Assembly (NCBI GenBank): GCA_965197905.1
Contig: CBDAOB010000005.1
Coordinates: forward strand, 1,824,001-1,888,000
Length of the DNA: 64,000 bases
Direction: 5' to 3'
Source: Candidatus Latescibacterota bacterium
GTDB lineage: Bacteria > Latescibacterota > UBA2968 > UBA8231
A program made the translations under genes and the position numbers. The notes below the pieces were generated by a model. The model ran no database searches. It saw only the letters and a list, made by a program, of their open reading frames with translations, and was not told the origin of the DNA. Within the stretch, counting starts at the first letter, position 1. Every line of letters begins with the position of its first letter. This document shows positions 1,007-32,692 of the stretch, piece after piece.

Positions 1007-1031
1007 TTGCCGCCCATTCGAACCCGAACTG

Positions 1032-7293: not shown

Positions 7294-7303
7294 GTCGCCC
7301 TCG

Positions 7304-8334: not shown

Positions 8335-8360
8335 TTCTTTGTCATTGCGCCTGAAGCGAG

Positions 8361-11744: not shown

Positions 11745-12149
11745 TCAGTCGCTCGTAAGGGTGAAATCGACGTCCAAGGTATCGCGTACGGTGCGCGCCT
11801 GCGCCACCACCTCCCCGCGCCGGGATCGGCCGTCGCCGGGACTCTGCAGGAAGGCGATCGCCAGGCCGTCGAGGGTGATGGCGCTTGAGGTTATCGTACC
11901 TACGGTGGTTGCGAACACTACGACGGTGCTATCCTGAACCGGGCGGGTTCCCTCCCTGATGGTTGCCCAGATCTCCGAAACGGCCTCGCTGTCCTCAACC
12001 GAAAGCCGGTCTGGAAAGGCGGCGAGCTCGATGGTGAGGTTCTTGTCCTTTGAGCTGGTTGGTGCTACCGAGAAGGCGCACTGGCCGGCGGCGAGCGCAA
12101 TGGCGGCCATGAGCGCAAGGTTCGCGAGAGCTCTGATCTTTCGATTCAC
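11745..12149 (-). CDS. Small putative lipoprotein with invasin/Big-like Ig domain
   Basis: GTG at 12149 overlaps the upstream TGA. Signal MNRKIRALANLALMAAIALAAGQ-C; beta-rich DSTVVVFATTVGTITSSAITLDGLAIAFL. Confidence 0.65.
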   Translation of the reverse strand: MNRKIRALANLALMAAIALAAGQCAFSVAPTSSKDKNLTIELAAFPDRLSVEDSEAVSEIWATIREGTRPVQDSTVVVFATTVGTITSSAITLDGLAIAFLQSPGDGRSRRGEVVAQARTVRDTLDVDFTLTSD

Positions 12150-13630
12150 GGCAGAAAATCCGGTGGAGTCCACGAGAAGCGCTCGGCCATGCTTGCCAGC
12201 ATGTTGCCCGCGACATCCTCGAGGGCTGAGTTTTGTATATCCGACAATTCGCGCGCCGAAGCGGTCGCAGTAATGTTGCGGCGATCGACGGGGAGCAACC
12301 TCACGCGCTTGCGGGCCCGGCCGACGCCGTCGATAGTAGCGGTAAACGCCTCCATCTCCTCCCCTTCCGGGCCGAAGAATTCCATAACTCGGAACCGGAG
12401 TCTGACATCGACCCTGGTCTCTGGCAGCTCGACCAAGTAGGGTAGGTGAATACCGGCAAATCGTTTGATTTCGTAGTCCAGCACCTCCCCCGAAACCACC
12501 ACATCCACACCTAGCTTTCGCGCCAGATCCCGCGCCAACAGCGGTGATACTCCCCCTTTTCGGGGCAAACCGGAGAACCGAGCCAGGTCCACCACCTCGA
12601 GACTGTCGTGGGGAGCGAGCTCCGTTTTGATCTTTGCTACCAGTCGCGGCCCGGCATCGTATTCCTCGAACCCTTCGAAGTCGAGGATGGCGATGCGCAA
12701 GACCTTCTCCGGCTCGTACAGACGTTTTATTGGAGCCGGCGGAATATAGAGTGTATGCCGCGTCCCCAACTTGCGGCGAAAACCGTGCATGCGCACCCCG
12801 AAGGTAAAAGCACCCTTGGTGGGGTGATCCAAGAATCCGATCTCCCGGTTCAATTCCAGTTGGATGCCGCGAAACAACCGAATCCGCGTGCCGAATTTCA
12901 ACGCGCCAGACGCACGAGACTCCTGGGTAAACGAAACGCGAGCCTGGTACTCCACGTTGAAGCTGGCGCGATTTTGACGGCCAACCTCGATGCCGAGACC
13001 GTACACGAGCTGCGAAAGGACCTCCAAATTCCCCGACCGGAAGAATCCGCCGTTGATGTAGAGCGACAGCCTGCGAAAATGGAGGTCAACCAGATATTGC
13101 AGCCCCAAGTCCACCGACTCCGAGCTGAACGGACGGATGCCTCCCACCTTGTCCAGGGCATGTTCCCCCTTGTATCCCAAGGGTAAAGTGAACAAGAGTT
13201 GAAAGGCCGAATGGGAGCTCGACGGCACCTTGGTCTGTCTCGCGTACTTGATCCCGACTACCGGATCCCCGGTGCCGTACTTGTTGAGCCCGCCCGCTGA
13301 ATCTAGAAGGAACGGCACCAAAAAACTTATATCGATGGCGGGACTGAACCCGAAGGCATACCCATAGTTTCCCGTGTAGATGCTCCCCTGCCCCAGCTCG
13401 GGGATCGTAAGACCCACCGATCGATTAAGGGCGCGGACGCGGAATCGGCCCTTCCCCAACGGCTCGGCGCTGTGAATCATGTCCAGGCCCTGGCCGAGAG
13501 GAACGCTGATGGCCGAATTCTGAGGTCGGCGCAAAAGGTTCAGATCTTGAGCCGTTACTGGAGTATTCGCCATGGCCGCAAACGAAAACGCCGCCAGTAA
13601 GATAGCCCCGTATGATTTTTCGTTTGCCAC
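12146..13630 (-). CDS. Outer-membrane beta-barrel protein with C-terminal CsgG/TolB-N-like domain (hypothetical)
   Basis: Signal peptide; alternating amphipathic strands (GTGDPVVGIKY, LVYGLGIEV, FTFGVRM); Pro-rich linker; RIAILDF...LARKLGVDVVVSGEV. Confidence 0.6.
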   Translation of the reverse strand: MANEKSYGAILLAAFSFAAMANTPVTAQDLNLLRRPQNSAISVPLGQGLDMIHSAEPLGKGRFRVRALNRSVGLTIPELGQGSIYTGNYGYAFGFSPAIDISFLVPFLLDSAGGLNKYGTGDPVVGIKYARQTKVPSSSHSAFQLLFTLPLGYKGEHALDKVGGIRPFSSESVDLGLQYLVDLHFRRLSLYINGGFFRSGNLEVLSQLVYGLGIEVGRQNRASFNVEYQARVSFTQESRASGALKFGTRIRLFRGIQLELNREIGFLDHPTKGAFTFGVRMHGFRRKLGTRHTLYIPPAPIKRLYEPEKVLRIAILDFEGFEEYDAGPRLVAKIKTELAPHDSLEVVDLARFSGLPRKGGVSPLLARDLARKLGVDVVVSGEVLDYEIKRFAGIHLPYLVELPETRVDVRLRFRVMEFFGPEGEEMEAFTATIDGVGRARKRVRLLPVDRRNITATASARELSDIQNSALEDVAGNMLASMAERFSWTPPDFLP

Positions 13631-13634
13631 TCTT

Positions 13635-14348
13635 CTACAACCTGGTCGACGACTCTTGAAGGAGCGAGGTCGCTTCTTCGTTTATGTTTTGCAGCAGGTG
13701 CCCCGGATCGCGAAACTGGAACTGGCCGCGAATCAGGCGCAGCTGCGCCGAGGCGTTGTTTGGATCTGGTCTATCCAGGGCGCTGTAGCGCCCCAGCTGG
13801 AAATACGACTCTGCCAGCAGGATACGGACGTGTCGGGAATCGAAGTTGTCGTGGGAGAGATTCCGCCCATCTTCATCCAGTCGAGCCCGCGAGTCGTAGT
13901 CAGGATCGATCTCTAAAGCCGTAATAGCGAACTGGATCGCGTCGCTGAACTGTTGCAGGGCGTGAGCCACGCCCGCCCGCCCGACCCAGGCATCGGTGTT
14001 CCGGGAATCGAGCTGCAATGCTTGCCTGAAGGCCAGATCGGATTTTTCCAGGTCTTGCTGTTTGAAGAAAGACCACGCGATGCCGCTATGCGCTTCTGAC
14101 TTGATCTGGTTCTTGACACCTTCCGCCCCCTCCAATAGGTCGGCCTGTTCGAGGGTCTGAGTAAAACCGTCGATGGCTGCGGCGTAGTTCCCGGTGTTGT
14201 AAGGACTCCAATCTGCCGGCAGTCTGTCCCGCAGTTTGTCCTCTTGTCGTTTTATTTCAGTAGGGCCAAGTCCGTTGCCGCCCCCGCACCCCGATTGCAA
14301 CAGGATTGCCGCGCCGATGAGCGCGATAAACTTCATATTGTTTCCCAT
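13635..14348 (-). CDS. TPR-repeat lipoprotein
   Basis: Lipobox LLQSG-C; TPR helices (AHSGIAWSFFKQQDLEKSDLAFRQALQLDS, AWVGRAGVAHAL...ALEIDPD); SD GAGGT before ATG 14348. Confidence 0.8.
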   Translation of the reverse strand: MGNNMKFIALIGAAILLQSGCGGGNGLGPTEIKRQEDKLRDRLPADWSPYNTGNYAAAIDGFTQTLEQADLLEGAEGVKNQIKSEAHSGIAWSFFKQQDLEKSDLAFRQALQLDSRNTDAWVGRAGVAHALQQFSDAIQFAITALEIDPDYDSRARLDEDGRNLSHDNFDSRHVRILLAESYFQLGRYSALDRPDPNNASAQLRLIRGQFQFRDPGHLLQNINEEATSLLQESSTRL

Positions 14349-14365
14349 AGATGACCTCTTTGGAC

Positions 14366-17274
14366 TCATTTCAACAACATCATGGAACGCGACAAGATTC
14401 GATTTCCTGACTCCAACCTGTAGAAGTAGATGCCGCTGCTCACCGTGCCACCGCTCTCGTCTCGCGCATCCCATTGCAGCTCATGCCGACCAGCCGATAC
14501 CTCTCTGGCGAGCAACTGACGTACCAGCTGACCCGATATGTTATAAATAGCGAGTCGCACGGATCTTTCCTCGGGTACAGCCAGGGAACGTCCTGTTTGC
14601 CGCGGCGCCCGATACCGGTGATGTTTCCTGTAGCATTAAGTTGAGCTTCGATACTCCACTGGATGGCCGAGTCCGGATGGGAGACGCGATCGAGAATGAA
14701 CTTATTGAGACTGTCTTCGTGGGACGTGCCGGCAACGAACTGAACGTCGGGCAGTGGCAACAAGCGGAGGACCTCGCTCTCGCCGAATACGCGGATGTGC
14801 GCCGTCTCCGTATTGCTATTTCCCAGGCTGTCCCTGGCCGTGAAGGCTACCGTATCAGTACCCGAGCTAACACCGAAGAACTGCACGATGTTCCCTTCGA
14901 TAATCGCGGGGATCGAATGGTCGCCTCCAAGGATGGTGAACTCCCAGGTCAAACTCTCCACCGGGAACTCGGCTGGGGCTTGAACGAAGTTGTCCAGATC
15001 CAGCACCTCGATGAATACTCCCACGGGCACCTCGAGGGTCAGCGGAAACGGACGGATCTGGAAGGAGTCTGAAGGTGGACCGCCCGATCGAATCGTCACG
15101 AGCATGGTATCCTGTGCCGTGATACCCTCCGGCGAGATCACCTGAAAGATTACGGATTCAGTGCGGAAGGTTGCACGGTCACTCACAACGAAGGTGACCA
15201 GGTGCGTAATCGGATCTATGCCGATCTGGAGGTTGCCTTGATCGAAACTGTCCAGGACGCGCCAGCTCATCTCCTGATCGGAGTTGTTCGAGTCGTAATA
15301 GAAGCTATCAAGGTCGATTTCGCTGTGCCGCTGTCCCTGATCCAATATCAGGTCGGGGAGTCCGCCGGCCACAGGCGTTCCATCTGAGGAGTAGATCCTG
15401 AGCTTCAAATCATCCGACTGATTCCCCGGGTCCGAGACAATCAGAACTGCCTCCTCGTAGCCAACGAATTCGAACGGCGAAGCCGCCGAAAGCACGTGAT
15501 TCTCATCGACCTCAAGTACCGTCCTGATGAACGAAGGGAATGCCCAGGCAAGCTCCGAGTCGGCGTTGTCCGGGTCGTCGACGAAGTCGTCCAGATTCTC
15601 TTGAGCCGTATCTCCTCCGGGTATCAGATTGACCTTGATCTCATCGGGAAACACGACCGGTGGCAAAGCCTCCGCGGCGGTTATGAAGATCACCATCGTG
15701 TCGGAGAGTCGTTCGGGATCCACCGGATCCGCTAGTCGAAAGGTGACCCTTCCCAACCCGGAAAAATCTGGGGTGCCGGTGATCGAGATCACCAGGCCGG
15801 CCTCGGTCCGGGTGGTGTCGGTGGCAAAATGCTCTTCCGGGTCATCTACCCAGGACAGCTCGAGGCTGTCCAATGATGTGTCCACGTCCCGTGCAATGTT
15901 GCTCAACAGATAAGAACGGGTCCCTCCCCGGCTAACCTTCGGCTCCCGGTCCTGCAGAATGAACTCCGGCGGGTCTGGAAGCTCGATCACCTCGATGATC
16001 ACGCGCAAAGAATCCAACCCGCGGAAGGCATCGAGCACCACCACCTTAAGCGAGTCGGTTCCAAAGAAATCCTGCCGGGACCATACCAGTAGCTCGTGGG
16101 TGTTCGGGTCATCGTCGGCCCGCACATTTACCGTGTCGGAGAAGGCACCGAACGGCAGCACCGTAAAGTTCAGCTCGCTCTGCGGGTCGATGACGTCCGG
16201 ATCGTCGACAATCTGATCAAGATCTCTGCCGCGAAACGCAACACGCCTGTCCAGAGCTAGACCCGGCGTAAACGGACTGCCGTCCTCGACGATGCGAATC
16301 GTGTCTCGCTTGACCCCATCGGCACCGGGTTGAATCGAAAACACGGGTGGATTGTTCACCACAATATCCGAGAATTCGGTGGTCTTATTAGGCTCCTGAC
16401 CCGGGATGAGTCCCGAAGGTTCCTCGGCGATCCAGATGATCCGCTGGCGCCCCGTCCAGCCGTTCTTCGGGGTCACCTTTACGCGGTTGGTCACGGGCTC
16501 GATCTCCACCGAAAGGCTGTCCTCCAGGAAACTGTCCACAACGGAAGGATCGACGTTGGGAAGCTCGAAGGACCAGCGTATGGAATCTGGAGCGGCAAGG
16601 GTGCTGGAGACGTAGCTCGTCAGCGAGCCAATCTGCAGACTGTCGGCCTGGCCGGGTGAGAGGATCACATCCGGGATGTCTCGCAGTTGCAGCCCGGTAA
16701 CCGTGATTTCCATACCCCGGACGGTGAGGAAGCGAACCTCTTGGCCATCAGGCAGTACTAAACGGGTTTCGCGGACCGGGTTGTCGTCGATATCAATTCG
16801 ACCGTTGACGATGGGACGGACGCAAAGCAGCCGAAACGACGCTATCACGCCTGCTCCACCCCGGGTTCTCTGCCCGGCGGCCCCAACGACAGCGGCATAA
16901 TCCAGCTGCTGACCCTCGAAGTTGGAAGCGGACGGGTCGCTTTCAGGAAGCAGAAGGTTGATCTGCTCGCCTGCACCCTGAAAGAGCGGCCCCTGGAGAA
17001 AAGGCTGGACTCCGACACGCAACTCGGCCCCCTGATCGATTACCTGGAAGGCATCGCTGGGCACCGTTATGAAAAAGGCGACTCCGGACGCCTCCACTCT
17101 GCCCAGGTCACCGAACACCTCGATGGTGATCGTCTGGCCAACCTGGACCGTCGCCCGCGAGGAGTTTCCGCCGGCCTGCTGGAGTCGCAATGTTTGCGCA
17201 CCGGCAGCAGTCCAACTGAGACCGAATAGACCTATGACAAATACGGTCGGGACTAATCTATTTCGCATACTCAT
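14366..17274 (-). CDS. Large secreted protein: cohesin-like N-domain, about 7 cadherin-like/Ig repeats and a FlgD/T9SS-like C-terminal domain; interrupted near 14590
   Basis: Signal peptide MSMRNRLV...AAGA-Q; repeats of the form LDxFVxDxD...LxW. A second frame (14366-~14590) encodes SVRLAIYNISGQLVRQL...WDARDESG..VSSGIYFYRL...SRSMMLLK. Confidence 0.75.
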
Positions 17275-17317
17275 CGGCGTTTAGTCCGGACACAATAGTC
17301 CGGGCACCCGCAACTAC

Positions 17318-17333
17318 GCAAATTGCGTGCCCA
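17318..17333 (-). promoter_or_regulatory. sigma54 (-24/-12) promoter
   Basis: Minus strand TG-GGCACG-CAAT-TTGC with exact GG-N10-GC spacing, about 45 nt upstream of ATG 17274. Confidence 0.65.
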
Positions 17334-17478
17334 TTTCCACACATAAGAGCATCGCCAACTCGAAGGTTGGCGGAACTGTAATTCCCTCTCCTATGACGCC
17401 CGACCGGCTGTTGGCGTTTCGGGGAGCACATTTACCTAGGCCATCGTGCGAGGGGAACTCTTTTCCTGCAGAACAAGC

Positions 17479-17511
17479 AAAAGCGCCGCAGGGTTTCCCC
17501 TGCGGCGCTTT
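17479..17511 (-). terminator. Intrinsic terminator after the giant protein gene
   Basis: Perfect 14-bp stem AAAGCGCCGCAGGG/CCCTGCGGCGCTTT with a 4-nt loop and T-rich tail on the minus strand, 24 nt after the stop. Confidence 0.85.
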
Positions 17512-17534
17512 GTACCGTTGTTGATCTACCTGGT

Positions 17535-20500
17535 TTATTTCACCAGGGTCATCTTGCGAATCTGCGAGAAGTCGCCGGATTCCAGACTGTAGAAATACAC
17601 TCCGGAGGATACGTCATGACCGGCTTCCGTGGTACCGTTCCACTTCATGCGGTAGGTACCCGCCTTCATCCGCTTGTCCGCCAGCGTCCGGACGGTCTGT
17701 CCGAGCTGGTTGTAGATCCGCAGCTTGACGATGCCCTCGGCGGGAATGTCGAAGCGGATCTCCGTGGACGGATTGAACGGATTCGGGAAGTTCTGATGCA
17801 GTGCTGCCACCTTCGGCAGGGCCGGAGCCTTCTTCACCTGCATCGGAGAGCCACGGAACTCGCTGTTCACCAGGTCACCGGAGATGATCTCCATTTCGCC
17901 CGGATCATCACCCATCGCGACGAAGCGCAAGGTAGCCAGGTTGGCGTTGCCGCTTGCCGACCAGCTTGCTCCAATGCGACCACCGGTCACATCGACGCGA
18001 CCCGGCTGGACGCGATGGAAGAAGAGCGATCCATGCGGGTTCTTGGCAAAGACGTCGCCTGCCGTCGCGGCCTTGTCGCCACCGATCAGCTTAACCCTGT
18101 TCGGATCGAAGCTGACGCTGAGACCGTAGGCCATGACGTCGGTCATGCCGGTGACGTTCAGGTTCACCTCGAACTCGCGGCCGGTCCACCAGGACTCAAC
18201 ATCGCTGAGACCGTTGAGCTCGACCACGGCGTTCTCGTTGTCACCGCTGGCGTAACCCCGCTTGAAGACAGGCGGAGCACCAAAGCCGTCGATACCGAAG
18301 TTCTGGCTTACGAAACCCAGATCGATGGCGTTGATGATGCCGTCGTCGTTGATATCCGATGGCGCCTGGAATCCAGCATCGGCCGGAGTCAGGTTCCACA
18401 GGCTGAAGACGAGGTTCGCGTCAGCAACATCCACCTGGTTGTCGCCCGTCGCATCGCCGCCCTTGAGGAAACCAAACGGCGTCGCCGGAGACAGGTTACC
18501 CAGGTTGTCAGACCCGAAGGTCGGATCGGCGGTCTTGGTCGTCCCGTTGAACAAGTTCAGCGTATCGGTACGACCGGAGATGTAGCCGTCGGTCTTCACC
18601 GTGATCTCGTAGATACCCGGGGGTATCTCCGTGAGGGTGAAGGTCCCGAAGGCATCGCTGACCACGTTGACCGAATCGAGTATCACAACCACGCCCGGAG
18701 CGTTGCCGGTAATGGTGCTGATGTTGCCAACCGCACCGCTGGTGCCACCCGTGACCGTCTCGCCAGTCGAAAACACGCCCGTGAGCGGGGTTCCTACCGT
18801 GAGATTGGGACTGGCAAACGCGGTGACCACGCCGGCTGCGCCGCTGGTCGTACCCGTAGCCGTCTCAGAGGCGGCAAAGGTACCAGTGATACTGGCCAAA
18901 CCTAGCGTTACCGTCGTATTGCCACCGGTCGAATCGAGCGCAACGTCGTTGGCGCGGATGAAACTCTCATCAGTTATATCCTGCGTGCTTCCGATCTCGC
19001 GCAAGTGCACATCCAGGGTGTCGCCAAAATTCGTGCGACCCTGGAGTGGCGCCGTGGCGATCACGCGAGCACGAGGCGTCAGTGTTACGACACCGTCGCG
19101 CGGTGGAGCAGCTATCTGCGTAGTTCCGTTGCGCATTCCGGTGATTCGATTGCCGCCGGAATTCCACGCCAACGTGGTGTCTGCAGGTGCACCGCCCGTG
19201 AAGCGCTTGACCAGGAGTTGCACCGTGGCGGCCACCTGGGAGCTGTCGCCCGCCACGTTGCCGATCACCTCGCCACCGATCCGGCTCTCTACGAAGTTCA
19301 GGTAGAGCCACTGGTCGGTGCCCTGTGTCGTATCGTTCTGCGCGATGGTTGCGGCACCGATGAAGGCGCCGGTCGAATCCTTGAACGGCTGCACACCCGA
19401 CGTAGCCGCATCCTGGTCGATGACCTCGAAGTGCGAACGTGGCACGTTCAGATGGAAAGCCATCAGGTCGATGCTGCTGGCCTGTGAGTTCGTCAAGACC
19501 TGGAAGTCGAGCGTATCCCCCGAGCTTGCGGTGAGAGCTGTGGGCCCGAGCTCAATACTGAAGATCGGGTCAGCCCCCTCGACACGCAGGGCTCCGGGCG
19601 CCTTGGAAAGCACGGCCGACAGAGACTGAGATCCGTTGCCAGTGGCTATCGAATCCACCGTGCCATTGACGAAGATGTCTTCACCGAACTGCGGATTCAT
19701 GCTGGCGGCGACGAAGATGTCGAACTCGGTTGGCGTCCCGATTATCTTGAAGGACGTCGTCTTCGTATCCCACAGGAAGAAATTCTCGTCGCTTTCACGA
19801 ATCCGCTGGATCTTCAGTGAAGTGGAGCCCGTGTAATCCTCGATCTGGGCACCAGCAGCGTTTACGTTCGTGCCGTCCAGGCTATTGATGAGAAACACGT
19901 CACCATTGCCTGCACCAGCATTGGTTTCCAATTGAGTAATTGTGGTGTACTTGTTTTTCGGTGCCGCATAGAGACGCAGGTAGGCGTCATCCGTGCCCGT
20001 GCCATCGTCGATCAGGAAAGCATCCCATTCGAGACGGATCACGTCGCCGTTGATGAGCGTCTGCCCGGACTCGGGCGGCGTCTTCATGGTTACACGTGGC
20101 AACTGGGAAGCAGGGCTCGTACCACTGCCTTGCAGCAGCACGGCACCACCCCCCTGCACCCGCGTGTTACCAAGGGTATCTGCCATGACGGCGTAGACCC
20201 ACGCCGTGTCCACCGTGGAGCCAACCTGGAGATATTCGGATTGTTGGCATTCGACGGGGCCCCGCTTGGGCTGCCCCTGAACGTCTTGGGCAACTCGCCG
20301 GGCGGGTTACGGAAATCCCAGACGAACTGGTCTCCGGCACCCTCGTCGTCCTCGCGGATACCGCCCTGGATCAAGACAGCGTTTCCAGGATTAGTGCCAC
20401 TGGTTGCCACCAGTTGCGTCGAATCGGTCCCAGAGTAATCCACAGTGGTCGGATCGATGCCGGTGTAGTAGAGAGCAATTATGGCATTTCCATCCAGGTC

Positions 20501-23500: not shown

Positions 23501-24136
23501 GCGCCCGCCCGCAATAACTGCAGCGTTTGTGATGGTTTGATTGTCGCGCCCATACCCCCCGAGACCATCCGGAGAATTGTCCATCGCGTAGACTACGCGA
23601 GGATTACCCTTGCTGTTGATGACGATGTCGAGCGTCGAGAACCCGCCCGTTCCGGACAGGTTGGGCGTGAGCATATCGAAACGCAACGTGCCCGATACGG
23701 ATACGGTGTCAGAAAACGTCTTGCCGCCGTCCAGACTCTTAGCATAAACGACGCCGTAGACGGGCGTTGAGGTTGAAACCGAAAAATCCGCGATACCGCG
23801 CTGCTGAACCCAGGCGCGGTGAATGATCCCGTTGTTGTCGATGGCCATGGCCTGATCCATATACGCCGCTTCGCTTGCGGTACTGAAAAAGCCTTGTGCC
23901 TGTTCGACTTTCTGGAAATTGCCAATGACCGGGTAGGTCTCATTGGCCGACTCGCTCAAATCGACAAGAATGCTGATATCCTTGTCGGACGCAAACGAGG
24001 TTTTGGTCGTGCTGTCAGAGGGGGAAAATCCCACTGGCGTCTGATTTTCGAAAACCGGCTGGGCAAAGGCATTCGTACCCAGAGCGATCGCGAAAACGAC
24101 CATCAGCGTTTGAAAAGACTTAAGCCTTAAGCTCAT
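17535..24136 (-). CDS. Giant (~2200 aa) secreted surface protein: Asp-box/BNR region, 4 Ig-like modules, cohesin, dockerin-like pair, cohesin, FlgD/T9SS-like CTD; 1-nt frameshift near 20230 (track ORFs 20090-24235 and 17535-20213)
   Basis: SD GGAAGGAG before ATG 24136; signal ...TNAFA-Q; SLDGGKTF and SNDGGSSW Asp-boxes; GDATGDNQVDVAD...SDINDDGIINAIDL; QNFPNPFNPSTEIRFDIP...SSGVYFYSL...IRKMTLVK. Confidence 0.8.
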
Positions 24137-24409
24137 AACCAAGCACTCCTTCCGTGGACACAACTTACAATTGCTGAAAGCGAAAAAGTCTACGACGGCC
24201 CCAGTTGATTTCCCTATCCCCTGTGGGCCCATCATCTATCGACTTACGTGCCCGCCCCCACGGGCACAATTAGTTCAAAAAGTGGTTTTGTGAGACCTTA
24301 CTCACCTCCTGTGCATTTTTCACGATTGATGAAATAACGTGCTGTTTTTCTGTCATTTATGTATATCGCACACACGGTTCTCCCGCGTTGAACGAATCCT
24401 TACTCCTAC

Positions 24410-24437
24410 TTATCGGCAGTGGGTCTTGGGAACTTCA
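24410..24437 (-). promoter_or_regulatory. sigma28 (FliA/SigD)-like promoter, proximal
   Basis: Minus strand TGAA-N16-GCCGATAA. Confidence 0.55.
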
Positions 24438-24547
24438 AGATTATTTTGCCCGTTAAGTCGCCGATCCAGTTATCAGGTACTATGCCGTTTTTTAGCATTG
24501 GGCCGCAAATCCGATTCAGTTTCGAGGGTTTGCGGTAATAGCTACCT

Positions 24548-24575
24548 ATATCGGCAGCCCACCCTGATTAGTTGA
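24548..24575 (-). promoter_or_regulatory. sigma28 (FliA/SigD)-like promoter, distal
   Basis: Minus strand TCAA-N16-GCCGATAT, same spacing as the proximal copy. Confidence 0.55.
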
Positions 24576-24640
24576 GCGCCGTCTGCGAATAGCCGCACCC
24601 TTGCGACATTGCCTGCCCCCCGTTATTATTACCGCCTCCA

Positions 24641-24813
24641 AAGAAAGGTTGTGGAGCCGACCCCTTTAAGAGTTGCCGGCTCCACCCTCGCTTTCAGACC
24701 AAGTTGTGCCCCAGGTTGTGGTTTCTCGAGCGCTTCACGCCTGATTACGCCGCTTGGGGGAGCGAAAGCGGGCGGACTGCGCTCGCACTTTGATGGGACT
24801 ATAAACTTGTCGC
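24641..24813 (-). ncRNA. Candidate sigma54-driven structured RNA/attenuator (~170 nt) ending in a terminator hairpin
   Basis: Lies between a sigma54 promoter (24824-24839) and the hairpin 24651-24685 followed by CCTTTCTTT. It has alternative helices and no ATG-started ORF. Confidence 0.4.
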
Positions 24814-24823
24814 TGCCCTTCTA

Positions 24824-24839
24824 AGCAAGCATCGTACCA
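24824..24839 (-). promoter_or_regulatory. sigma54 (-24/-12) promoter
   Basis: Minus strand TGGTACG-ATGC-TTGCT, near consensus TGGCACG-N4-TTGCW. Confidence 0.7.
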
Positions 24840-24972
24840 CGCTCAGGGGCTGGAGCATTAACAGATCTTTTAACTTGTTGTGGAACAGGCGATTCGCAAA
24901 ATCACCTGAACCACCGACCTCAGTAACGTCGAGGAAGATTTTGCCTTACTTTTTTACGTTTGGAGAGCGACT

Positions 24973-25227
24973 TTGCCTAAACTGAAATCTTCCAAAAAGC
25001 GGCTTCGGACCAACCTCAAAGCAAGATTAAAGAACAAGGCGATACGCTCGAGGATGCGAACCGCTATCAAGTCTGTGCGAGAAGCTGAGGACAAGGAAAC
25101 GGCTGCTGGCGCGTTGCAAACCGCCGTCTCCCTGATAGACAAAACGGCGCAAAAGAAGGTCATCCACCCGAATATGGCCGCACGTTACAAGTCAAATCTG
25201 ACCCGAATGGTCCAGAAAATGGACTGA
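24973..25227 (+). CDS. rpsT: 30S ribosomal protein S20
   Basis: MPKLKSSKKRLR...NKAIRSRMRTAIK...IDKTAQKKVIHPNMAARYKSNL; TTG start with SD GGAG. Confidence 0.97.
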   Translation: MPKLKSSKKRLRTNLKARLKNKAIRSRMRTAIKSVREAEDKETAAGALQTAVSLIDKTAQKKVIHPNMAARYKSNLTRMVQKMD

Positions 25228-25253
25228 TTGCACCCGCCAACCGATTGAATAAC

Positions 25254-25288
25254 GCCCGCCTGCTCTTATCGAGCAGCGGGCTTTTTTC
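25254..25288 (+). terminator. Intrinsic terminator of rpsT
   Basis: GCCCGC(C)TGCTC-ttatc-GAGCAGCGGGC followed by TTTTTT. Confidence 0.8.
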
Positions 25289-25289
25289 T

Positions 25290-26954
25290 ATGAGCCCGAA
25301 CCGCAGACCCGAGGTGTTTCTCATTTTTGTGGTGGCTGCGGTTGTTCTCGTCTATCTCGGCAGCCTCGACAACAGCTTCCATTACGACGACGGCCACTCG
25401 ATCCAGCGCAATCCCCACATTCGAGATCTGGCCAACCTACCGCGTTTTTTCACAGATACGTCGCTCTTCTCCGAAAATCCGGAGTACGCCATGTATCGAC
25501 CGCTGGTGCTGACCTCTCATGCGCTCAATTACGCTTTGGGAGGGCCCGATCCATCGGGGTATATTGCGCTGAACCTCGCTATTCACACCGCAGCTACCGC
25601 GCTCGCTTTCCTTGTCCTCCTTCAGCTGGGGGGAGGGTTGTACGGCGCAACCTTGGGCGCCCTCCTGTTCGGTTTCCACCCGGTTCACAGTGAGGTAATC
25701 AACTTCGTCAGCGCCCGCTCGGAGTCGCTCGCCGCCGGGTTCATGCTGCTCTCGTTTGCGGCTTACATGAGAGCTACTCAATCCGGAGGGTCGAGGATAG
25801 CAGTGTCATCGAAGGGGTACCGAGCCCTCTCCGTTTTGGCCTTCGGCTTGGGGTTGTTGTGCAAGGCGACCGCCATTGCGCTGCCTGCCCTTTTGATCGT
25901 GTATGCGTGGCTCCGTCATCCAAAAGGCTGGAATTGGCGCGACCTGGCTCGAGTCCAGCTCGCCTACTGGGCCGTCACCGCGCTGTATGTGGCAACATAC
26001 CTCTTCTTCTCGTCGCAGAGCGTCGGAAGAGCCGGCGAGGTACGGAGTGCGACGTCCCAAATCGCGACGCAGGCTAAGGCGATCGTCCACTACATTAAAC
26101 TTTCCATAATGCCCACGGAGCTGACCATATATCACCAGTTTTTCATCTCCGATTCGCTCGCAGAATGGGCCCCGTTTCTCGGCCTTCTTGCGGGGCTCAG
26201 CCTCGCGCTAATGTTTGTTGTCTTGTGTAGGACAAACTGGCTGGCCAGCTTCGGTTGCGCCTGGTTTGTCATCACCCTGTTTCCAACGTTAGCAGTGCCT
26301 CTAAACCTGGCCGTGAACGACCACAGACTCTACCTGGCTTTGTTGGGTCCGGTGATCACGTTGACTGCGTTGTGCAGGGATCGTCGCTTCGCCATTTGGG
26401 CAGTAGCGGCCGCCGCCGTCTTCGGCCTCCTGTCCGCCAAACAAGATGTCGTGTGGCAGGATGAGCTGAGCCTTTGGGACCATGCCGCCAAGCGCGCACC
26501 GCTCATGCCCGAAGCGCACTACAATCTGGCGGTTGAATACCACGAGGTGGGAGATCTGCAGATCGCGCGACTTTCATACGAGGCCGCGGTTGGACTTGAT
26601 GCGACCTACGAGGAGGCACAGGCCAATCTGGCTTCGATCTATCGTGCTGCCGGTGAGCTGGAAAAGGCGGAGTCGGCGCTAAAAGCCGCGCTTCAAGCTG
26701 AACCTGATCTTCCAGGAGCTCTCAACAGCCTTGGTTTGCTGCTGATGGACAAGGGGCAGTTAGAGCGTGCCGAGCAGGTTTTTCTGCAGATTCTGGCTTC
26801 GGACCCTGAGGTGGCCGAGGCACATTTCAATTTGGGACTGATCTACCGGGACCAGGGAAAGAAGGATCTGGCCGTTGAATATCTGAAACGAGCCGTAGCT
26901 TTGAAACCGGAACTAAAAACGTCGACCCTGCGAGCTCCGTCAATTCAGCGATAG
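25290..26954 (+). CDS. TMTC-like multi-pass membrane glycosyltransferase (GT-C) with C-terminal TPRs, paralog 1
   Basis: FHYDD loop after TM1, MYRPL, LFGFHPVHSEVINFVSARSE, LLCK, NDHRLYL, VWQDELSLW, then TPRs (AHYNLA, AHFNLG). Confidence 0.85.
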   Translation: MSPNRRPEVFLIFVVAAVVLVYLGSLDNSFHYDDGHSIQRNPHIRDLANLPRFFTDTSLFSENPEYAMYRPLVLTSHALNYALGGPDPSGYIALNLAIHTAATALAFLVLLQLGGGLYGATLGALLFGFHPVHSEVINFVSARSESLAAGFMLLSFAAYMRATQSGGSRIAVSSKGYRALSVLAFGLGLLCKATAIALPALLIVYAWLRHPKGWNWRDLARVQLAYWAVTALYVATYLFFSSQSVGRAGEVRSATSQIATQAKAIVHYIKLSIMPTELTIYHQFFISDSLAEWAPFLGLLAGLSLALMFVVLCRTNWLASFGCAWFVITLFPTLAVPLNLAVNDHRLYLALLGPVITLTALCRDRRFAIWAVAAAAVFGLLSAKQDVVWQDELSLWDHAAKRAPLMPEAHYNLAVEYHEVGDLQIARLSYEAAVGLDATYEEAQANLASIYRAAGELEKAESALKAALQAEPDLPGALNSLGLLLMDKGQLERAEQVFLQILASDPEVAEAHFNLGLIYRDQGKKDLAVEYLKRAVALKPELKTSTLRAPSIQR

Positions 26955-27108
26955 GGGACCAGGTACCCGGCCCAGTCTGCCAAAAATAGAAGCGAAGGCT
27001 GGCAACCGCCCGGCGAACAGGGAAACCAACAGCTTCAGGCTAAGGGAATGGAAAATGTGGTTGTTGAGATCAGAATAGGTGGTCGGAATCTCGCGAGGGG
27101 CGGGGCAG

Positions 27109-28026
27109 TTACTCGAAGGCTCGAGTACTGAGGTAACGGAGCCCGCTGTCGCAGAGAATGGTGGCCACCCTCTTGCCGGTCCCTAACTCCGCCGCAACCT
27201 CGCACGCCTTGAAGACGTTGGCACCCGCGGAAATACCCACCAGTAGTCCTTCCTCCCGCGCTAGGCGACGAGTCATGTCGTAGGCGTCGTCGTCGCTAAT
27301 GGTGCGCACCTCGTCGATGAGCGAGCGGTCGAGGATATCCGGAACGAATCCGGCGCCGATCCCCTCGATGTAACTGAATCCAGGATTTCCTCCCGACAGG
27401 ACGGGCGAGCCCTCCGGCTCAACGGCAACCACGCGCACCGCCGGAATCGCCTCTTTGAGCACCATTCCAACCCCGGTGAGCGAACCACCGGTACCCACTC
27501 CCGCCACCAGCGCATCGATCTGCCCATCCATCTGCTCGAGAAGCTCGGGGCCGGTGGTGCGTCGGTGAATCTCCGGATTGGCGGGGTTCATGAACTGCTG
27601 CGGCAGGAAATATTCGGGGTGCTCTTGCTTAAGCTTCAACGCCCGTTCGATGGCGCCGCGCATCCCCTCGTCTGAGGGGGTAAGCAGAACCTCCGCTCCA
27701 TAGGCCTGAATCTGCAGCCGGCGCTCCCGGCTTGCGGTGTCGAACATGGTAATGATGAGGCGATACCCCTTGATCGCCGCAACCATCGCCAGGCCAATCC
27801 CGGTATTGCCGCTGGTGGGCTCGACGATTGTGCCGCCAGGTTTCAACGCCCCGGCTTCTTCGGCTGCCTCGACCATGGCGAGGGCGATGCGATCTTTGAC
27901 ACTTCCGGCAGGATTTGCCGACTCCAGTTTCGCCCAGACCTCGGCGGTTTCGTTTCCAACCACCTGGTTCAAGCGCACGATCGGCGTGGCACCGATAAGA
28001 TCCAGCGCGTTGTTGGCCCGTTTCAT
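27109..28026 (-). CDS. cysK: Cysteine synthase A (O-acetylserine sulfhydrylase)
   Basis: NPAGSVKDRIA (PLP lysine), EPTSGNTGIGLA, GVGTGGS, IEGIGAGFVP, GISAGAN, DSGLRYLS. Confidence 0.93.
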   Translation of the reverse strand: MKRANNALDLIGATPIVRLNQVVGNETAEVWAKLESANPAGSVKDRIALAMVEAAEEAGALKPGGTIVEPTSGNTGIGLAMVAAIKGYRLIITMFDTASRERRLQIQAYGAEVLLTPSDEGMRGAIERALKLKQEHPEYFLPQQFMNPANPEIHRRTTGPELLEQMDGQIDALVAGVGTGGSLTGVGMVLKEAIPAVRVVAVEPEGSPVLSGGNPGFSYIEGIGAGFVPDILDRSLIDEVRTISDDDAYDMTRRLAREEGLLVGISAGANVFKACEVAAELGTGKRVATILCDSGLRYLSTRAFE

Positions 28027-30032
28027 TCTTCTTTTTCCTCTAGTGCGCTATTCAGTGCTTGAATCCGCGTCCGCACGTATTGCTCACGAGTGTGGTTGCC
28101 CACCGAGACCCGGAGAAACCGTCGGTAACTTTCGAGTGCTTCGCCGGGCGCTCCCAACCCCTCCCACGCCTGCGCCAGACCCAACAACATGCCCGGCTCC
28201 GCTGGCGCCATGCTCAGCGCGGCTGCATAGATCTCCTGCGCCGGCCGGTAGCGCCCGCTTTCCAGATAGATGGATCCGAGATTCATGTGGGCCCCGAGGT
28301 GATGAGGCGATCTGCTGAGCGCCTGCCGATACTGCACCTCCGCCGCCTCGTGGTTGCCGTTGGTCCAATCCAGATTGGCCAGGTTATAATATGTTTCACC
28401 GTGGTCCGGTCGCAAGAATATAGCCCGCTGGTACGCCGAGCGGGCTTCGTCGAACCTTCCCTGGCGGACATGCAAAATACCCAGTCTGCGGTGAACCTCG
28501 CCGGATGCTGGGTGGTGTTCCGCCGCTTTCCCCAGCAGATCCTCCGACATTTTCAGCTGATTGCGATCGAGATGGACCGCGGAAAGATTGATCAGGGAAT
28601 TGTGGAACGTCGGGTCGAGCTCGAGGCTTTTCTCGTAGGATCTCACCGCGGCATCGATCTGACCCAGCAACCTCAGTCCATTGGCCAGATTATAATGTGA
28701 CTCTACCACGCCTGGGGCCAGCTCGACCGCCCTCTGGTAGCGCTTCACGGCCTCCTCAACTCTGCCCGACGCCTCCAGGGCACCTCCGAGGTGCATCTGC
28801 GAACGGTACATCCCCGGGCTCTGTCGCACCGCGGCGTTCCAGAGCGTCAATTCGCTCTCCCATACCCGATTTCTTTTCGCCGTCAGCGCAGCGAGGCAGA
28901 CCACAACGGTCACCGCGGCTAGTAGGCGGAGCCGCCGGATATCGGACCATGTTGCGACTAACATGGTCACCCCGATAGCGATGCCGGCAAGAGGAAGATA
29001 GAGCCGGTGCTCGTTCACGAGCACGTTCAATGGCACAATACTAGAAGGCAGCAAAGGCAGGATGGTCCACGCGCAAACTAGCGCGGCCTTACGCCGGTGC
29101 CGTAGGGCGAACAAAGCAGACAGCAGCAGGAGCGCCGCGAAGAGAACAGGAGCCTCCCACCACACCTCCGACACGCGAAAACCGTGTTCGACGCTCAGAT
29201 GAATTGGAGCAGCGACAAGCTGCAGGTAATATGGCATCGCCTTGATCTGCGTGTATATCTGGTGCGTTAGGTCCCTGATCGGATGCCCCAACGCCGAATC
29301 AATCCCTTGTTGGACCAATGCCACGTAAGCGAGACAGACCATCCAGTAGCCCGCATTGTGCGCCCAGGGAATCGGATCTCGCTCTCGGCGCTCCCGAACA
29401 AACTCCCATACCAGTAAGGCGAGGGGTAACACCGCTGCGGTAGCCTTGCTCAACAGCGCCAGTGCGAACGCCGCCAGCGAAGCGAGGTAGATCATGCTGC
29501 CCGAATTCGATCGCTGGCGCGCACGCCATCGCAGGTAAAAGAGCAGGGCCAGCAGATACCAAAACGCCGCGAGGGATTCGGAGCGACTGCTGATGTAGTT
29601 GGTGGCTTCCGCCTGCAGCGGATGCAAACCGAACAACAGGGCGCCGAATGCTGCGGCGCGGGCATTGCCGACAACGGCGATCCCAAGCAGGTAGACGGCG
29701 ATCGCACAACTGATGTGAAGGGCAACGTTGACGAGGTGATACCCGAAGATCTCGTACCCGTGCACCCAGTGGTTCAAGGCGTAGGTGACCAGGACCAGCG
29801 GCCGGTACATGGCCCGCTCGGGCATGGACGAGAATAGGCTCGGGTCCGAGAAGAACGCGGGAATGTTCCCCAGGAGCCGAATATGGGGGTTCTCGACTAT
29901 GGAGTGGAAATCGTCGTAGTGAAAACTATTGGAGAAGGAGTTGCCGTAGGTGGCAACAATTGCCAACGTCGCCAGAAGCAGAAACCATCGACGTGTGGAA
30001 GCGGCAAGCAACGGTGCGTTCACATCTGGCAA
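28023..30032 (-). CDS. TMTC-like membrane glycosyltransferase with TPRs, paralog 2
   Basis: FHYDD, MYRPL, LHPLQAEATNYISSRSE, LLSKA, VNEHRLYLP, RNRVWESELTLW, about 7 TPRs; stop overlaps the cysK start (ATGA). Confidence 0.85.
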   Translation of the reverse strand: MPDVNAPLLAASTRRWFLLLATLAIVATYGNSFSNSFHYDDFHSIVENPHIRLLGNIPAFFSDPSLFSSMPERAMYRPLVLVTYALNHWVHGYEIFGYHLVNVALHISCAIAVYLLGIAVVGNARAAAFGALLFGLHPLQAEATNYISSRSESLAAFWYLLALLFYLRWRARQRSNSGSMIYLASLAAFALALLSKATAAVLPLALLVWEFVRERRERDPIPWAHNAGYWMVCLAYVALVQQGIDSALGHPIRDLTHQIYTQIKAMPYYLQLVAAPIHLSVEHGFRVSEVWWEAPVLFAALLLLSALFALRHRRKAALVCAWTILPLLPSSIVPLNVLVNEHRLYLPLAGIAIGVTMLVATWSDIRRLRLLAAVTVVVCLAALTAKRNRVWESELTLWNAAVRQSPGMYRSQMHLGGALEASGRVEEAVKRYQRAVELAPGVVESHYNLANGLRLLGQIDAAVRSYEKSLELDPTFHNSLINLSAVHLDRNQLKMSEDLLGKAAEHHPASGEVHRRLGILHVRQGRFDEARSAYQRAIFLRPDHGETYYNLANLDWTNGNHEAAEVQYRQALSRSPHHLGAHMNLGSIYLESGRYRPAQEIYAAALSMAPAEPGMLLGLAQAWEGLGAPGEALESYRRFLRVSVGNHTREQYVRTRIQALNSALEEKEE

Positions 30033-30050
30033 GTAAGCTCGTCGTCGCAG

Positions 30051-30332
30051 TCAGGCTTTGCCACCGGCAATAGCCGGCACGATCGACAGGTTGTCGCCGT
30101 TGTTCAGGGGCGTTTCGGAGCCGTCCAGAAAACGGATGTCCTCGTCGTTGACATAGATATTCACGTAACGGCGAATCTCCCCGTTCTCGTCGACCAGCTT
30201 TTCCTTGATGCCGGCAAATGACGTCTCAAGATTCTCTACCAGCTCTGCCACAGTTGCTGCGTCAATCTCTACCTCGGCCTGGTTTCCAGTCAGCTTTCGG
30301 AGAGGGGTGGGTACGTGCACCGTAATTGCCAT
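30051..30332 (-). CDS. MoaD/ThiS/CysO-family ubiquitin-like sulfur carrier
   Basis: VHVPTPLR...RRYVNIYVNDEDIRFLDG...LSIVPAIAGG-KA; SD GGAGG. Confidence 0.93.
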   Translation of the reverse strand: MAITVHVPTPLRKLTGNQAEVEIDAATVAELVENLETSFAGIKEKLVDENGEIRRYVNIYVNDEDIRFLDGSETPLNNGDNLSIVPAIAGGKA

Positions 30333-30343
30333 TTATTCCTCCG

Positions 30344-32209
30344 TTAGAATTTGGTTGTCGCCGATATTTCTTGTGCCCTGAGACGGGCGATCCTCGCCAG
30401 CTCTAGATCCTGGCTATACCGGGCAGCGTTCTGGTACGAATAGACAGCATCCTCCGAACGTTCCAGGACCAGCTGTAGATTTCCCAGATTGAACCAGGCG
30501 TCGGCATAGGTCGAATCGATGGCCAAGGCTGCTGCGTACGCCTCCTCCGCCTCGGCAAGGTTGCTACTCTCTTTCGCGGCCACGCCCAGGCGGGACCATA
30601 AGCTCGCACTTGGCGTGGACGATACCCCCAAAGACGCCCGGTAGTACTCGAGCGCTTCTTTGGCGTTTCCACCGCGCCCGAGCGCGAGGTCACCCAAGTG
30701 TTCCAGGGCGTCCGAGTTTTCGGCGTCGAATTTCAACACCCGTTCGTATTCTTGAATAGCTTCCTGCCACTTCTCCTGGCGCACGAAAACACCGGCGAGA
30801 TTCAACCTGGCGGCAATGACATCCGGAGAGACCGCAAGCAACGCGCGGAACTGCTCTTCCGCCTGCGCCCAGTTCCCCTGACGCAGATATAACCGTCCAA
30901 GGTTGTTCCGCGCGGCGGCGTGTCGCGGCCGCAGATTCAGGGCCTTGAGATACGCATTCTCTGCTTCCGCCCATTGAGCCCGCTTGGCATGTTCGTCACC
31001 CAGGCGCAGCTGCGGCTTTAGCATCATGGGCCCTTTGCGTGCCGCGTCCCCCCACAACTGCAGCTCATCCCCCCACACCCTGTTCCGGTCTACCGTCAAG
31101 GAGGCCAATATCACAAGGTAAAGACCCACTACGACCTTTGCTACCTTGGGCCGGCAACTGTTCAGGCTCGCAAATCCCCATATCGCGATGAGGCAAAAGC
31201 CGATGCCGGCCACGTACATGCGGTGCTCGTTGACCAACACGATCAGCGGAACGACGAGCGCAGGCAACAAAGCGATCAATGCCCACAGCCAGCCAAACGC
31301 GAGCAGTCGGCTATTCCGAATGATCACTATTGCCAGGGAAACGACAAACAACCAGACGCATAGAACAACCGGTTCGTCAACTTGGCGCGACAGTGAGAAT
31401 TGCGGATCGACACTCAAGCTGACCGGCACCCCGGTCGTAAACGCGTAAAATACGAGGGCTTTCAGTTGCGTCCACAGCTGCACATCGAGCGTGCGCACAG
31501 GGGTCAACACAGCTTTCTCGATGATCGACCGCACGAAAAGTAGATACAATGCCGGCAATGCCAGAAACGGCACGTACTGTCGCCATTGGGACCGTATGCC
31601 CTCCCATCCCCGGTGCAGCCAATCGCAACTCACCAGGCTGAGAACGGCTATTCCTCCCACGGATTTTGTCAGCAGCGACAGGGCAGCGGCGCAAACAGCG
31701 CCAACATACCATCGAGCGCTGCCCATTGTGCGAAAGCGCAGATATAGAACACACGCCAACAACAGAAAGGTCGCCATCAACAGCTCGGATCTGCTGCTGA
31801 CGTAGTTGACCGCTTCGGAGTTTATCGGATGTACAGCGAACAGCAGAGCTGCTCCCCCCGCCATCTTGCGGTCCCCCATCAGTTGCAACAGAAGCAGAAA
31901 CACCAATCCGGCATTCAGCCCGTGAAGCAATACGTTGGTACGATGAAAGGCGCGGGCGTCCAGTCCGCTCGAGCTGAAGTTGAGTGCATACGTTGCCAAT
32001 AACACCGGGCGGTACATCGCGTTTTCCGCCTCTTCCGAAAAGGTAGAAGGATCGAGGAAGAAACGGGAGACATTGCCGATCGATCGGATGTGGGGATTGC
32101 GGACGACCGAGTGAAAGTCGTCGTAATGGAAACCGTGATCGAGGCTTCCCCAGTACAGAGCGGTCGCGACACCGAAGACACTACATGCGATGGCGGCCGA
32201 GCGCAGCAA
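30344..32209 (-). CDS. TMTC-like membrane glycosyltransferase with TPRs, paralog 3
   Basis: FHYDD, MYRPV, VHPINSEAVNYVSSRSE, LLTKS, VNEHRMY, RNRVWGDELQLW, TPRs. Confidence 0.85.
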   Translation of the reverse strand: MLRSAAIACSVFGVATALYWGSLDHGFHYDDFHSVVRNPHIRSIGNVSRFFLDPSTFSEEAENAMYRPVLLATYALNFSSSGLDARAFHRTNVLLHGLNAGLVFLLLLQLMGDRKMAGGAALLFAVHPINSEAVNYVSSRSELLMATFLLLACVLYLRFRTMGSARWYVGAVCAAALSLLTKSVGGIAVLSLVSCDWLHRGWEGIRSQWRQYVPFLALPALYLLFVRSIIEKAVLTPVRTLDVQLWTQLKALVFYAFTTGVPVSLSVDPQFSLSRQVDEPVVLCVWLFVVSLAIVIIRNSRLLAFGWLWALIALLPALVVPLIVLVNEHRMYVAGIGFCLIAIWGFASLNSCRPKVAKVVVGLYLVILASLTVDRNRVWGDELQLWGDAARKGPMMLKPQLRLGDEHAKRAQWAEAENAYLKALNLRPRHAAARNNLGRLYLRQGNWAQAEEQFRALLAVSPDVIAARLNLAGVFVRQEKWQEAIQEYERVLKFDAENSDALEHLGDLALGRGGNAKEALEYYRASLGVSSTPSASLWSRLGVAAKESSNLAEAEEAYAAALAIDSTYADAWFNLGNLQLVLERSEDAVYSYQNAARYSQDLELARIARLRAQEISATTKF

Positions 32210-32218
32210 GGCTTGGAA

Positions 32219-32680: not shown

Positions 32681-32692
32681 GTGAAATCTCCT

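Follow-up and report, generated by a model that had tools for sequence, protein, structure and literature searches.

Layout of the locus

We analysed a 64,000-nt stretch of DNA from a Candidatus Latescibacterota genome (the window; assembly GCA_965197905.1, contig CBDAOB010000005.1, positions 1,824,001 to 1,888,000) starting from three of its open reading frames (ORFs), the genes T1, T2 and T3, and their neighbours. The three genes encode TMTC-like membrane proteins in which tetratricopeptide repeats (TPRs) follow a domain of the glycosyltransferase C (GT-C) type. They lie near genes for two giant secreted proteins and two family 2 glycosyltransferases (GT2s), and together these genes are a candidate surface-glycosylation system. 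The principal features of the window are the following.

25290..26954, + strand: T1, TMTC-like GT-C + TPR protein, 554 aa, divergent from giant 1; own orthogroup, 7 genomes, support 1.00
28023..30032, - strand: T2, TMTC-like GT-C + TPR protein, 669 aa; PMT_2 match under cut-off (E 1.4e-5); orthogroup, 5 genomes, support 0.97
30344..32209, - strand: T3, TMTC-like GT-C + TPR protein, 621 aa, with an AlphaFold2 model; orthogroup, 8 genomes, support 0.99
17535..24136, - strand: giant 1, secreted, ~2200 aa; cohesin-like, dockerin and CarboxypepD_reg domains, C-terminal FlgD-type sorting domain
14369..17274, - strand: giant 2, cadherin-fold repeats; Big_9 match; sorting-domain remnant at 14369-14623
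13635..14336, - strand: TPR protein with a lipoprotein-like signal, giant module
12146..13630, - strand: secreted or outer-membrane-like protein without Pfam or NCBIfam match, giant module
11745..12173, - strand: small exported-looking protein without known family, giant module
10269..11144, - strand: GT2b, polyprenyl-phosphate glycosyltransferase-type, two C-terminal helices
6349..7293, - strand: GT2a, polyprenyl-phosphate glycosyltransferase-type, two C-terminal helices

These genes are part of a block of ~66 kb, from aspS to lepA, with twelve close TMTC-like paralogs at its two ends: T1-T3 at one and an array of nine genes at the other. The order is cysM, JAB, T3, ThiS, T2, cysK, T1, rpsT, giant 1, giant 2, three small module genes and HNH. 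GT2b, a GT4 gene, a methyltransferase, an oxidoreductase, GT2a, a GT4 gene, AsnB-type amidotransferases, methyltransferases with GT4s and finally the nine-gene array follow.

The paralogs form a divergent TMTC-like clade

T1, T2 and T3 are 38-40% identical in pairs across the first 400 aa. As described in the original prediction, each carries FHYDDxH, YRP, HPxxsExxNxvSxRSE, K, N[ED]HRxY and WxxExxLW before the TPRs, and T1 has D at the first position of the 'EHR' motif. Pfam TPR models score above cut-off in all three, and helical repeats run from residue 397 of the T3 model. Tblastn and profile searches revealed a tandem run of nine further close paralogs, 14-33 kb to the left of the window; two of these have frameshifts. 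One more member of the clade, with a long TPR arm, lies ~0.6 Mb away, and the genome also has several TMTC-like genes that are less closely related. Each intact paralog has retained a long TPR arm of its own.

The AlphaFold2 model of T3 has a pLDDT of 90.6. When residues 1-413 were compared with known structures (VIA), the matches included Pmt2 (Z 19.6, root mean square deviation 4.6, 343 residues aligned), Pmt4 (19.6), ArnT (19.5), AglB (19.5), ALG12 (19.4), STT3B (18.4) and PglB (17.6), the GT-Cs compared ranging from Z 15.8 to 19.6. Near-equal values for Pmt2, ArnT, AglB and ALG12 support the GT-C fold and do not discriminate the acceptor. By its model, then, the T1-T3 type is a GT-C-fold membrane domain followed by TPRs, and the check that the original prediction had proposed for this fold came out in its favour. 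The model is compatible with 11 transmembrane helices; a simple hydropathy scan gave 5-8. The membrane-domain profile, run against the sequences of solved structures, gave chance matches only, a Foldseek list obtained with the full-length T3 model was taken up by TPR matches, and no TMTC or TMEM260 structure was among the 50 VIA matches listed. ArnT, ALG12 and AftA, which act on lipids or glycans, and Pmt2/Pmt4, AglB and PglB, which act on proteins, share the fold, and chemistry with a lipid-linked donor is expected here as well. Unlike the proteins of this locus, none of them has a TPR tail or a dozen fixed paralogs.

We then counted motif residues in 107 clade members from 15 genomes. The catalytic DD of the first outer loop is present in 106 of the 107, the remaining sequence being cut off, and an invariant His has been added after it. 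At the SHKSYRP site R is kept in 107/107 and P in 106/107, with the preceding HKS changed to xM. The lysine of the KE motif is universal (107/107); its glutamate is found in 18/107 and is absent from T1-T3, and it is present in 5/5 other TMTC-like paralogs of the genome. The DW motif of TMTC is replaced by [ED]HxF. At the AER site E or D occurs in 107/107, the canonical Arg position holds H in 66 and R in 38, and the next residue is an invariant R. Two R positions are conserved in 107/107 members. DUF1736 (PF08409) is matched by a single gene of the genome, which lies outside the clade; the clade aligns with this canonical TMTC at 28% identity (probability 99.9). Because KE and DW are replaced, a His is added and DUF1736 is matched only in another gene, the clade is a divergent TMTC-like subfamily and not a GT105 equivalog.

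Animal TMTC1-4 (CAZy GT105), which place a single mannose on B and G strands of cadherin domains from a polyprenyl-phosphate-mannose donor, share with the paralogs the GT-C domain with DD in its first loop, YRP, HP..E...R.[ED], K, E-x-R..Y, C-terminal TPRs, the occurrence of several isoenzymes and, in giant 2, a cadherin-fold protein as candidate client. The genes described here differ in being bacterial, in numbering 12-13 isoenzymes, in having mostly S/A for the KE glutamate, [ED]HxF for DW and an extra His after DD, in lacking a DUF1736 match and in being embedded in a glycan-building cluster. Sections of PMC7801869 describe the TMTC motif set, predict that the KE glutamate binds metal and mention prokaryotic homologues without a function.

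A paralog tree was built from 112 domains that cover at least 330 profile positions, with frameshifted and cut copies left out. It resolved ~13 position-fixed groups, each with at most ~1 member per genome, and support was at least 0.97 for 10 of them. Fixed and well-supported groups of this kind suggest that the paralogs are old isoenzymes and no recent duplicates. The wider TMTC-like family comprises 116,629 clusters (50% identity) at E 0.001 or better. Bacterial TMTC homologues have already been noted in print and are very numerous, which places them among the largest uncharacterised glycosyltransferase families. A full-text literature search, with most subscription papers outside its reach, turned up neither a functional study of any bacterial TMTC-like protein nor a paper that connects DUF2723 with the Bacteroidota sequon. 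The bacterial GT-C TfpW has reportedly been described with both transfer and polymer roles.

Other TMTC-like genes were seen elsewhere. The canonical gene at C4:72052-73869 (L006:8049-9731) has DUF1736 above cut-off and intact KE, DY and AER motifs, and is unlinked to the array. At C5:1224752-1228891 (L004) a methyltransferase, a Wzx/MurJ-like flippase and a long-TPR clade paralog (frameshifted here) stand in an order kept in five relatives. We considered whether this flippase is dedicated to the paralog and rejected the idea, since the flippase is kept (45% identity) in G010 and G017, both without the paralog. At L007:8616-11291 another TMTC-like gene is immediately preceded by a GT2 gene, which makes a minimal pair of donor enzyme and transferase. 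Several relatives (L011, L012, L014, L016, L019) have further GT-C genes of the PMT_2 type inserted in the block, some with TPRs and some without.

GT2 enzymes and the glycan cluster

The original prediction of two DPM1-like GT2s agrees with their sequences. GT2a and GT2b match PF00535 above cut-off, each followed by two C-terminal hydrophobic segments, and appear from their sequences to be of the polyprenyl-phosphate glycosyltransferase type. AglJ and ArnC are the best NCBIfam models for GT2b, and every named NCBIfam model of the two proteins falls under cut-off.

Around the array are GT4s and three AsnB-type amidotransferases, together with a deacetylase, PGA_cap, a hexapeptide acetyltransferase and a FemAB/GNAT-like protein; Wza-like and Wzz-like genes come five genes beyond lepA. 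Wzx-type flippases lie inside the cluster in G008 and G006; none was found within the glycan cluster of the studied genome. It had been proposed that the GT4/methyltransferase cluster may extend the glycan. As far as checked, these genes have no predicted export signal, and they belong to cytoplasmic families. Their products would thus build a lipid-linked glycan in the cytoplasm before it is flipped, rather than lengthen one already on the protein.

Two further features of the cluster were noted. An AsnB-type amidotransferase (3245-5157) is split in two ORFs, as it is in G016, and is whole in other relatives. Beside the array there is a conserved core (L003:2217-10089, L012) of AsnB, polysaccharide deacetylase, M55 D-aminopeptidase, degenerate AsnB, PGA_cap, methyltransferase and GT4.

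The giant secreted proteins

Giant 1 is a single gene running from 24136 to 17535, with a frameshift near 20230 in the assembled sequence; its orthologues have 2113-2208 aa. Giant 2, whose orthologues have 1422-1483 aa, is shorter by ~1.4 kb near 14560 in the assembled sequence than in a same-genus genome. Both families carry a C-terminal FlgD-type domain above the Pfam cut-off, from which we infer that the giants are secreted by a type IX-like route.

Both giants had been predicted to consist of Ig/cadherin-like repeats, and a cadherin fold is supported for giant 2 only. A model of four of its repeats (pLDDT 83.5) had cadherin ectodomains as top Foldseek matches (E 3e-18) and, in VIA, the dystroglycan cadherin-like domain as best match (Z 10.5) with cadherin-23 at 10.3; tandem cadherin-like beta-sandwich repeats are thus supported by the model. 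Giant 1 has dockerin, CarboxypepD_reg and FlgD domains and, just under cut-off, a cohesin match; searched as five pieces it gave no match to a cadherin or Big family. Its N-terminus is BNR-like (score 0.85, a lead only). The Ser/Thr richness ascribed to giant 1 was confirmed, its Ser+Thr content of 17.7% ranking 24 among 289 ORFs of at least 800 aa (median 11.5%). T1 modelled in complex with repeats 2-4 of giant 2 scored 0.00 in two runs, with controls not folded, and we count this neither way.

A second, unlinked giant locus at C5:2586136-2601948 (L129, L130) contains a paralog of giant 2 and two of giant 1 (1895 and 1929 aa), with no TMTC-like neighbour; it was not found in the five genomes in which the array is absent or decayed.

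Paralogs, GT2s and giants are lost together

We compared 18 genomes of the same family, in which all the array-bearing genomes fall. The clade profile gave 8-26 matches in 12 of the 18, four in G003, two in G009, and none or one distant match in G004, G010, G011 and G017. Orthologues of the main-locus giants were present in 11 of the 12 array-bearing genomes and in none of the five informative array-less or decayed ones. G009 has unlinked giant paralogs and a long paralog and was left out of this count as uninformative; matches to aspS and lepA are both missing from it (78% complete), so that the region is probably unassembled. GT2a orthologues (at least 65% identity) were found in 11 of the 12 array-bearing genomes and in G003, and GT2b orthologues in nine and in G003.

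The linkage of paralogs and giants is conserved across genera; neither this nor the fold comparison gave an outcome that the original prediction had named as speaking against it. We rejected conserved synteny alone as evidence, since housekeeping neighbours are equally conserved. The losses are more informative. The order in G011 is aspS, cysM, JAB, ThiS, cysK, rpsT, HNH, lepA: five separate intervals between kept genes have lost their contents, namely T3, T2, T1, the giant module, and the array together with the glycan cluster. G004 and G017 keep cysM-JAB-ThiS-cysK-rpsT with T1-T3 absent, and in G010 the order is aspS, ThiS, rpsT, lepA. In G003 the giants and T2 are gone, T1 and T3 persist as remnants and most paralogs are decayed, so that this genome looks like an intermediate in loss.

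In a species tree of 20 genomes from lepA and aspS, the four relatives lacking the array fall in four places. Trees that force the lackers, or the bearers, to be monophyletic were rejected (delta lnL ~206, approximately unbiased test p < 1e-6). The giant 1 paralog of the unlinked locus was not found in 5/5 lackers, G003 included; a related query recovered unlinked-type giant paralogs in 13 of 30 genomes, and FlgD-domain matches still number 38-136 in G004, G010, G011 and G017.

Since the losses lie in separate intervals, occurred in unrelated lineages and include the unlinked giant paralog, they point to one shared system rather than to mere adjacency. Paralogs, GT2s and giants are therefore likely to be parts of one surface-glycosylation system, in which the giants are the candidate target. 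The locus ties enzymes, probable donors and candidate clients together by repeated joint loss and not by adjacency alone.

The D-S/T sequon does not depend on the array

According to parts of PMC12871550, D-[ST]-[AILVMT] is the O-glycosylation sequon of Bacteroidota, with its transferase unidentified; core and outer glycan steps are proposed to be separate, the oligosaccharyltransferase and the ligase are unassigned, and a metG-wzx layout is described. Giant 2 has 17 such sequons compared with 4.6 expected, third among 4154 ORFs of at least 200 aa, and 0 of 2000 shuffles reached 17. Its orthologues were enriched in 7/7 cases (14-21 vs 6.0-7.6 expected) and those of giant 1 in 4/4 (18-22 vs 10.6-12.0 expected). 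Sequon Ser/Thr were also preferentially conserved, 15 of 20 compared with 43 of 164 other Ser/Thr and, in a second set, 16 of 18 compared with 113 of 315. Many sequons are at the starts of beta-strands, and part of this conservation may be structural.

Among 46 large S/T-rich ORFs, some of them duplicates or paralogs, 12 were depleted of the sequon and 4 enriched at p < 0.01; for the control E-[ST]-x these numbers were 1 and 0, and for the swapped motif 0 and 0. All 526 signal-peptide proteins, by a crude predictor, showed no sequon excess (ratio 0.89). Very large secreted-type ORFs, such as that at C3:1169778-1183208, show strong avoidance of D-S/T-hydrophobic triplets, one ORF of 4476 aa having 4 vs 36.5 expected, as though glycosylation had to be escaped. 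At C1:8284-19343 three adjacent large proteins have 27-35 N-[ST]-hydrophobic triplets vs 8-9 expected, probably because of repeats.

Genomes without the array were then considered. Twenty of their large secreted proteins had 146 sequons vs 134 expected, with one protein enriched and one depleted. Five array-less genomes gave thirteen orthologues of three periplasmic-type proteins, which had been picked for their enrichment in the studied genome; these orthologues had 115 sequons vs 27.2 expected (controls 0.55-1.67). One of the five genomes is G017, where a search at 1e-10 found nothing TMTC-like. The array as initiating enzyme of the D-S/T sequon was therefore rejected, since array-less genomes carry enriched sequons.

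Another enzyme, TMEM260-like or YfhO-like, likely reads the sequon. A TMEM260-like (PF11028) GT-C protein of 870 aa is encoded behind uvrA at C4:378790 (L128:8691-11303). Such a gene is present in 30/30 relatives; Bacteroides thetaiotaomicron alone had one among 14 control genomes. TMEM260 (CAZy GT117), of the protein O-mannosyltransferase type, shares the GT-C + TPR build with the paralogs and differs from them in being a separate family at another locus. As a candidate reader it competes with YfhO, for which weak matches were found in 14/14 genomes searched, 11 above cut-off. Parts of bioRxiv 10.64898/2026.07.27.740950 propose YfhO as the Bacteroidota enzyme and give it as absent from Porphyromonas gingivalis. 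Compared with the Bacteroidota system as described in parts of PMC12871550, the sequon here is likewise over-represented and conserved in giants and periplasmic proteins, and other large secreted proteins avoid it; it lies outside Bacteroidota, persists without the array and is accompanied by a cluster without the metG-wzx layout. The independence of a Bacteroidota-type sequon from the array helps to narrow down which enzyme is the Bacteroidota transferase.

Proposed function of the paralogs

We tentatively favour the reading that the paralogs are client-specific periplasmic O-glycosyltransferases that would act on the giants, transferring sugar from a polyprenyl-phosphate donor to Ser/Thr of beta-sandwich domains, and we hold it with somewhat less than even confidence. 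It is suggested by the only characterised relatives, which glycosylate cadherin domains, by the TPR arm that each isoenzyme has of its own, and by the joint loss of enzymes and giants. In sections of PMC11292533 animal TMTC1-4 are Dol-P-Man-dependent O-mannosyltransferases of cadherin EC domains, and parts of PMC10214176 likewise describe O-mannose put on cadherin domains by TMTC relatives. Mannose is not implied as the sugar transferred here.

In the proposed mechanism the GT2s would load the first sugar on polyprenyl phosphate, and the GT4, AsnB-type and methyltransferase genes would elaborate the lipid-linked glycan in the cytoplasm, after which it would be flipped. Each paralog's TPR arm may then hold a different domain or client while the giants cross the periplasm, before they exit via their FlgD-type C-terminal domain. 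Glycosylation of the giants would be a second layer over class-wide D-S/T sequon glycosylation by another enzyme. That both animal-type routes operate in one bacterial periplasm, a class-wide TMEM260-like sequon reader and a twelve-isoenzyme TMTC set for cadherin-fold giants, seems to us doubtful though conceivable. If true, the TMTC-cadherin pairing would be present in bacteria and may predate animals, and glycosylation of the giants by the paralogs, if right, bears on the origin of cadherin O-mannosylation.

Several observations weigh against this function. The KE glutamate and the DW motif are replaced in the clade, and ArnT and ALG12 fit the model as well as protein-acting GT-Cs do. The best-conserved Ser/Thr of the giants are D-S/T sequons, which are also present in array-less genomes. 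G018 (460 contigs) has the array, and the main-locus giants and GT2s were not found in it. Conversely, G020, a member of a sister family, shows an unchanged order of counterparts to giant 1, giant 2, the TPR gene and the 12146 gene, here among unrelated neighbours, and its TMTC-like genes are just one or two, distant and unlinked; the giant module thus exists without the array. T2 is missing in G008 and both T1 and T2 in G016, and both genomes keep the giants, so single paralogs are dispensable, which speaks against a strict array-giant pairing. G003, without giants, still has a GT4, both GT2s and two paralogs that are intact, one beside lepA, and is itself confounded by general decay since its cysM and oxidoreductase are decayed too. 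The species tree is based on two genes only. Joint loss indicates one system and does not show which molecule is the acceptor. The original proposal of a prokaryotic TMTC counterpart therefore stands as regards the GT-C fold, the cadherin fold of giant 2, linkage and joint loss; the replaced KE and DW motifs, the module without the array and the sequons kept without the array weaken it.

The paralogs might instead modify a glycolipid or a lipid-linked polysaccharide of the surface (capsule, O-antigen or cargo anchor), as ArnT and AftA do, the giants binding to or hanging on it and being lost with it. This would explain the joint loss equally well. It also fits the position of the array among GT4s, AsnB-type, acetyltransferase and PGA_cap genes, a cluster that presumably resembles the anionic lipopolysaccharide (A-LPS) genes of Porphyromonas. 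Wza/Wzz-like genes near lepA, Wzx-type flippases in the cluster of G008 and G006, the tie of ArnT and ALG12 with Pmt2, and the GT2s and GT4 kept without giants in G003 agree with it as well. We consider it rather unlikely all the same, in view of the long TPR arm on every intact paralog, for which we know of no counterpart in lipid-acting GT-Cs. In G003, moreover, most paralogs decayed and part of the glycan cluster stayed, and characterised relatives act on proteins only.

Alternatively, a class-wide enzyme, TMEM260-like or YfhO-like, could place a core sugar on D-S/T to which the paralogs extend or ligate outer sugars, the TPRs choosing the protein. Enrichment and preferential conservation of the sequon in the giants, TMEM260-like genes in all 30 relatives and altered active-site residues that fit a different acceptor are consistent with this, as is the separation of core and outer steps, with the ligase unassigned, that parts of PMC12871550 propose; joint loss is again explained equally well. 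The array is limited to one family and the sequon is class-wide, however, and the position of many sequons at beta-strand starts may account for some of their conservation, so that we judge such extension unlikely, slightly more so than action on a surface polysaccharide.

That the paralogs glycosylate other envelope proteins, with the giants merely neighbours deleted along with them, would suit the equally conserved housekeeping order, the huge size of the family (116,629 clusters) and the giant module without array, but losses in separate intervals and unrelated lineages, including that of the unlinked giant paralog, make it improbable.

Compared with these readings, glycosylation of the giants by the paralogs is the one we prefer. 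The locus is real and non-random and better supported than by adjacency alone, with an acceptor that is predicted only, and its theme recurs widely.

Neighbouring genes in the window

The remaining features of the window are the end of the glycan cluster, which runs on leftward out of the window up to the nine-gene array, and the housekeeping genes.

1..10272, - strand: right end of the glycan building/modifying cluster, with GT4s, methyltransferases, a Gfo/Idh/MocA oxidoreductase and a split AsnB-type amidotransferase
24970..33718: housekeeping genes among T1-T3, namely rpsT 24970-25227 (+), cysK 27109-28026, ThiS-like 30051-30332, JAB 32219-32650 and cysM 32693-33718

The gene at 24970-25227, without library match, we take to be rpsT from its translation. 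CysM, the JAB protease, the ThiS-like carrier and cysK make up a sulfur-carrier cysteine synthesis set, with T2 and T3 in between (27109-33718). In both families the giant module is followed by the small HNH protein (11156-11665), which remains where the module has been deleted (G003, G011).

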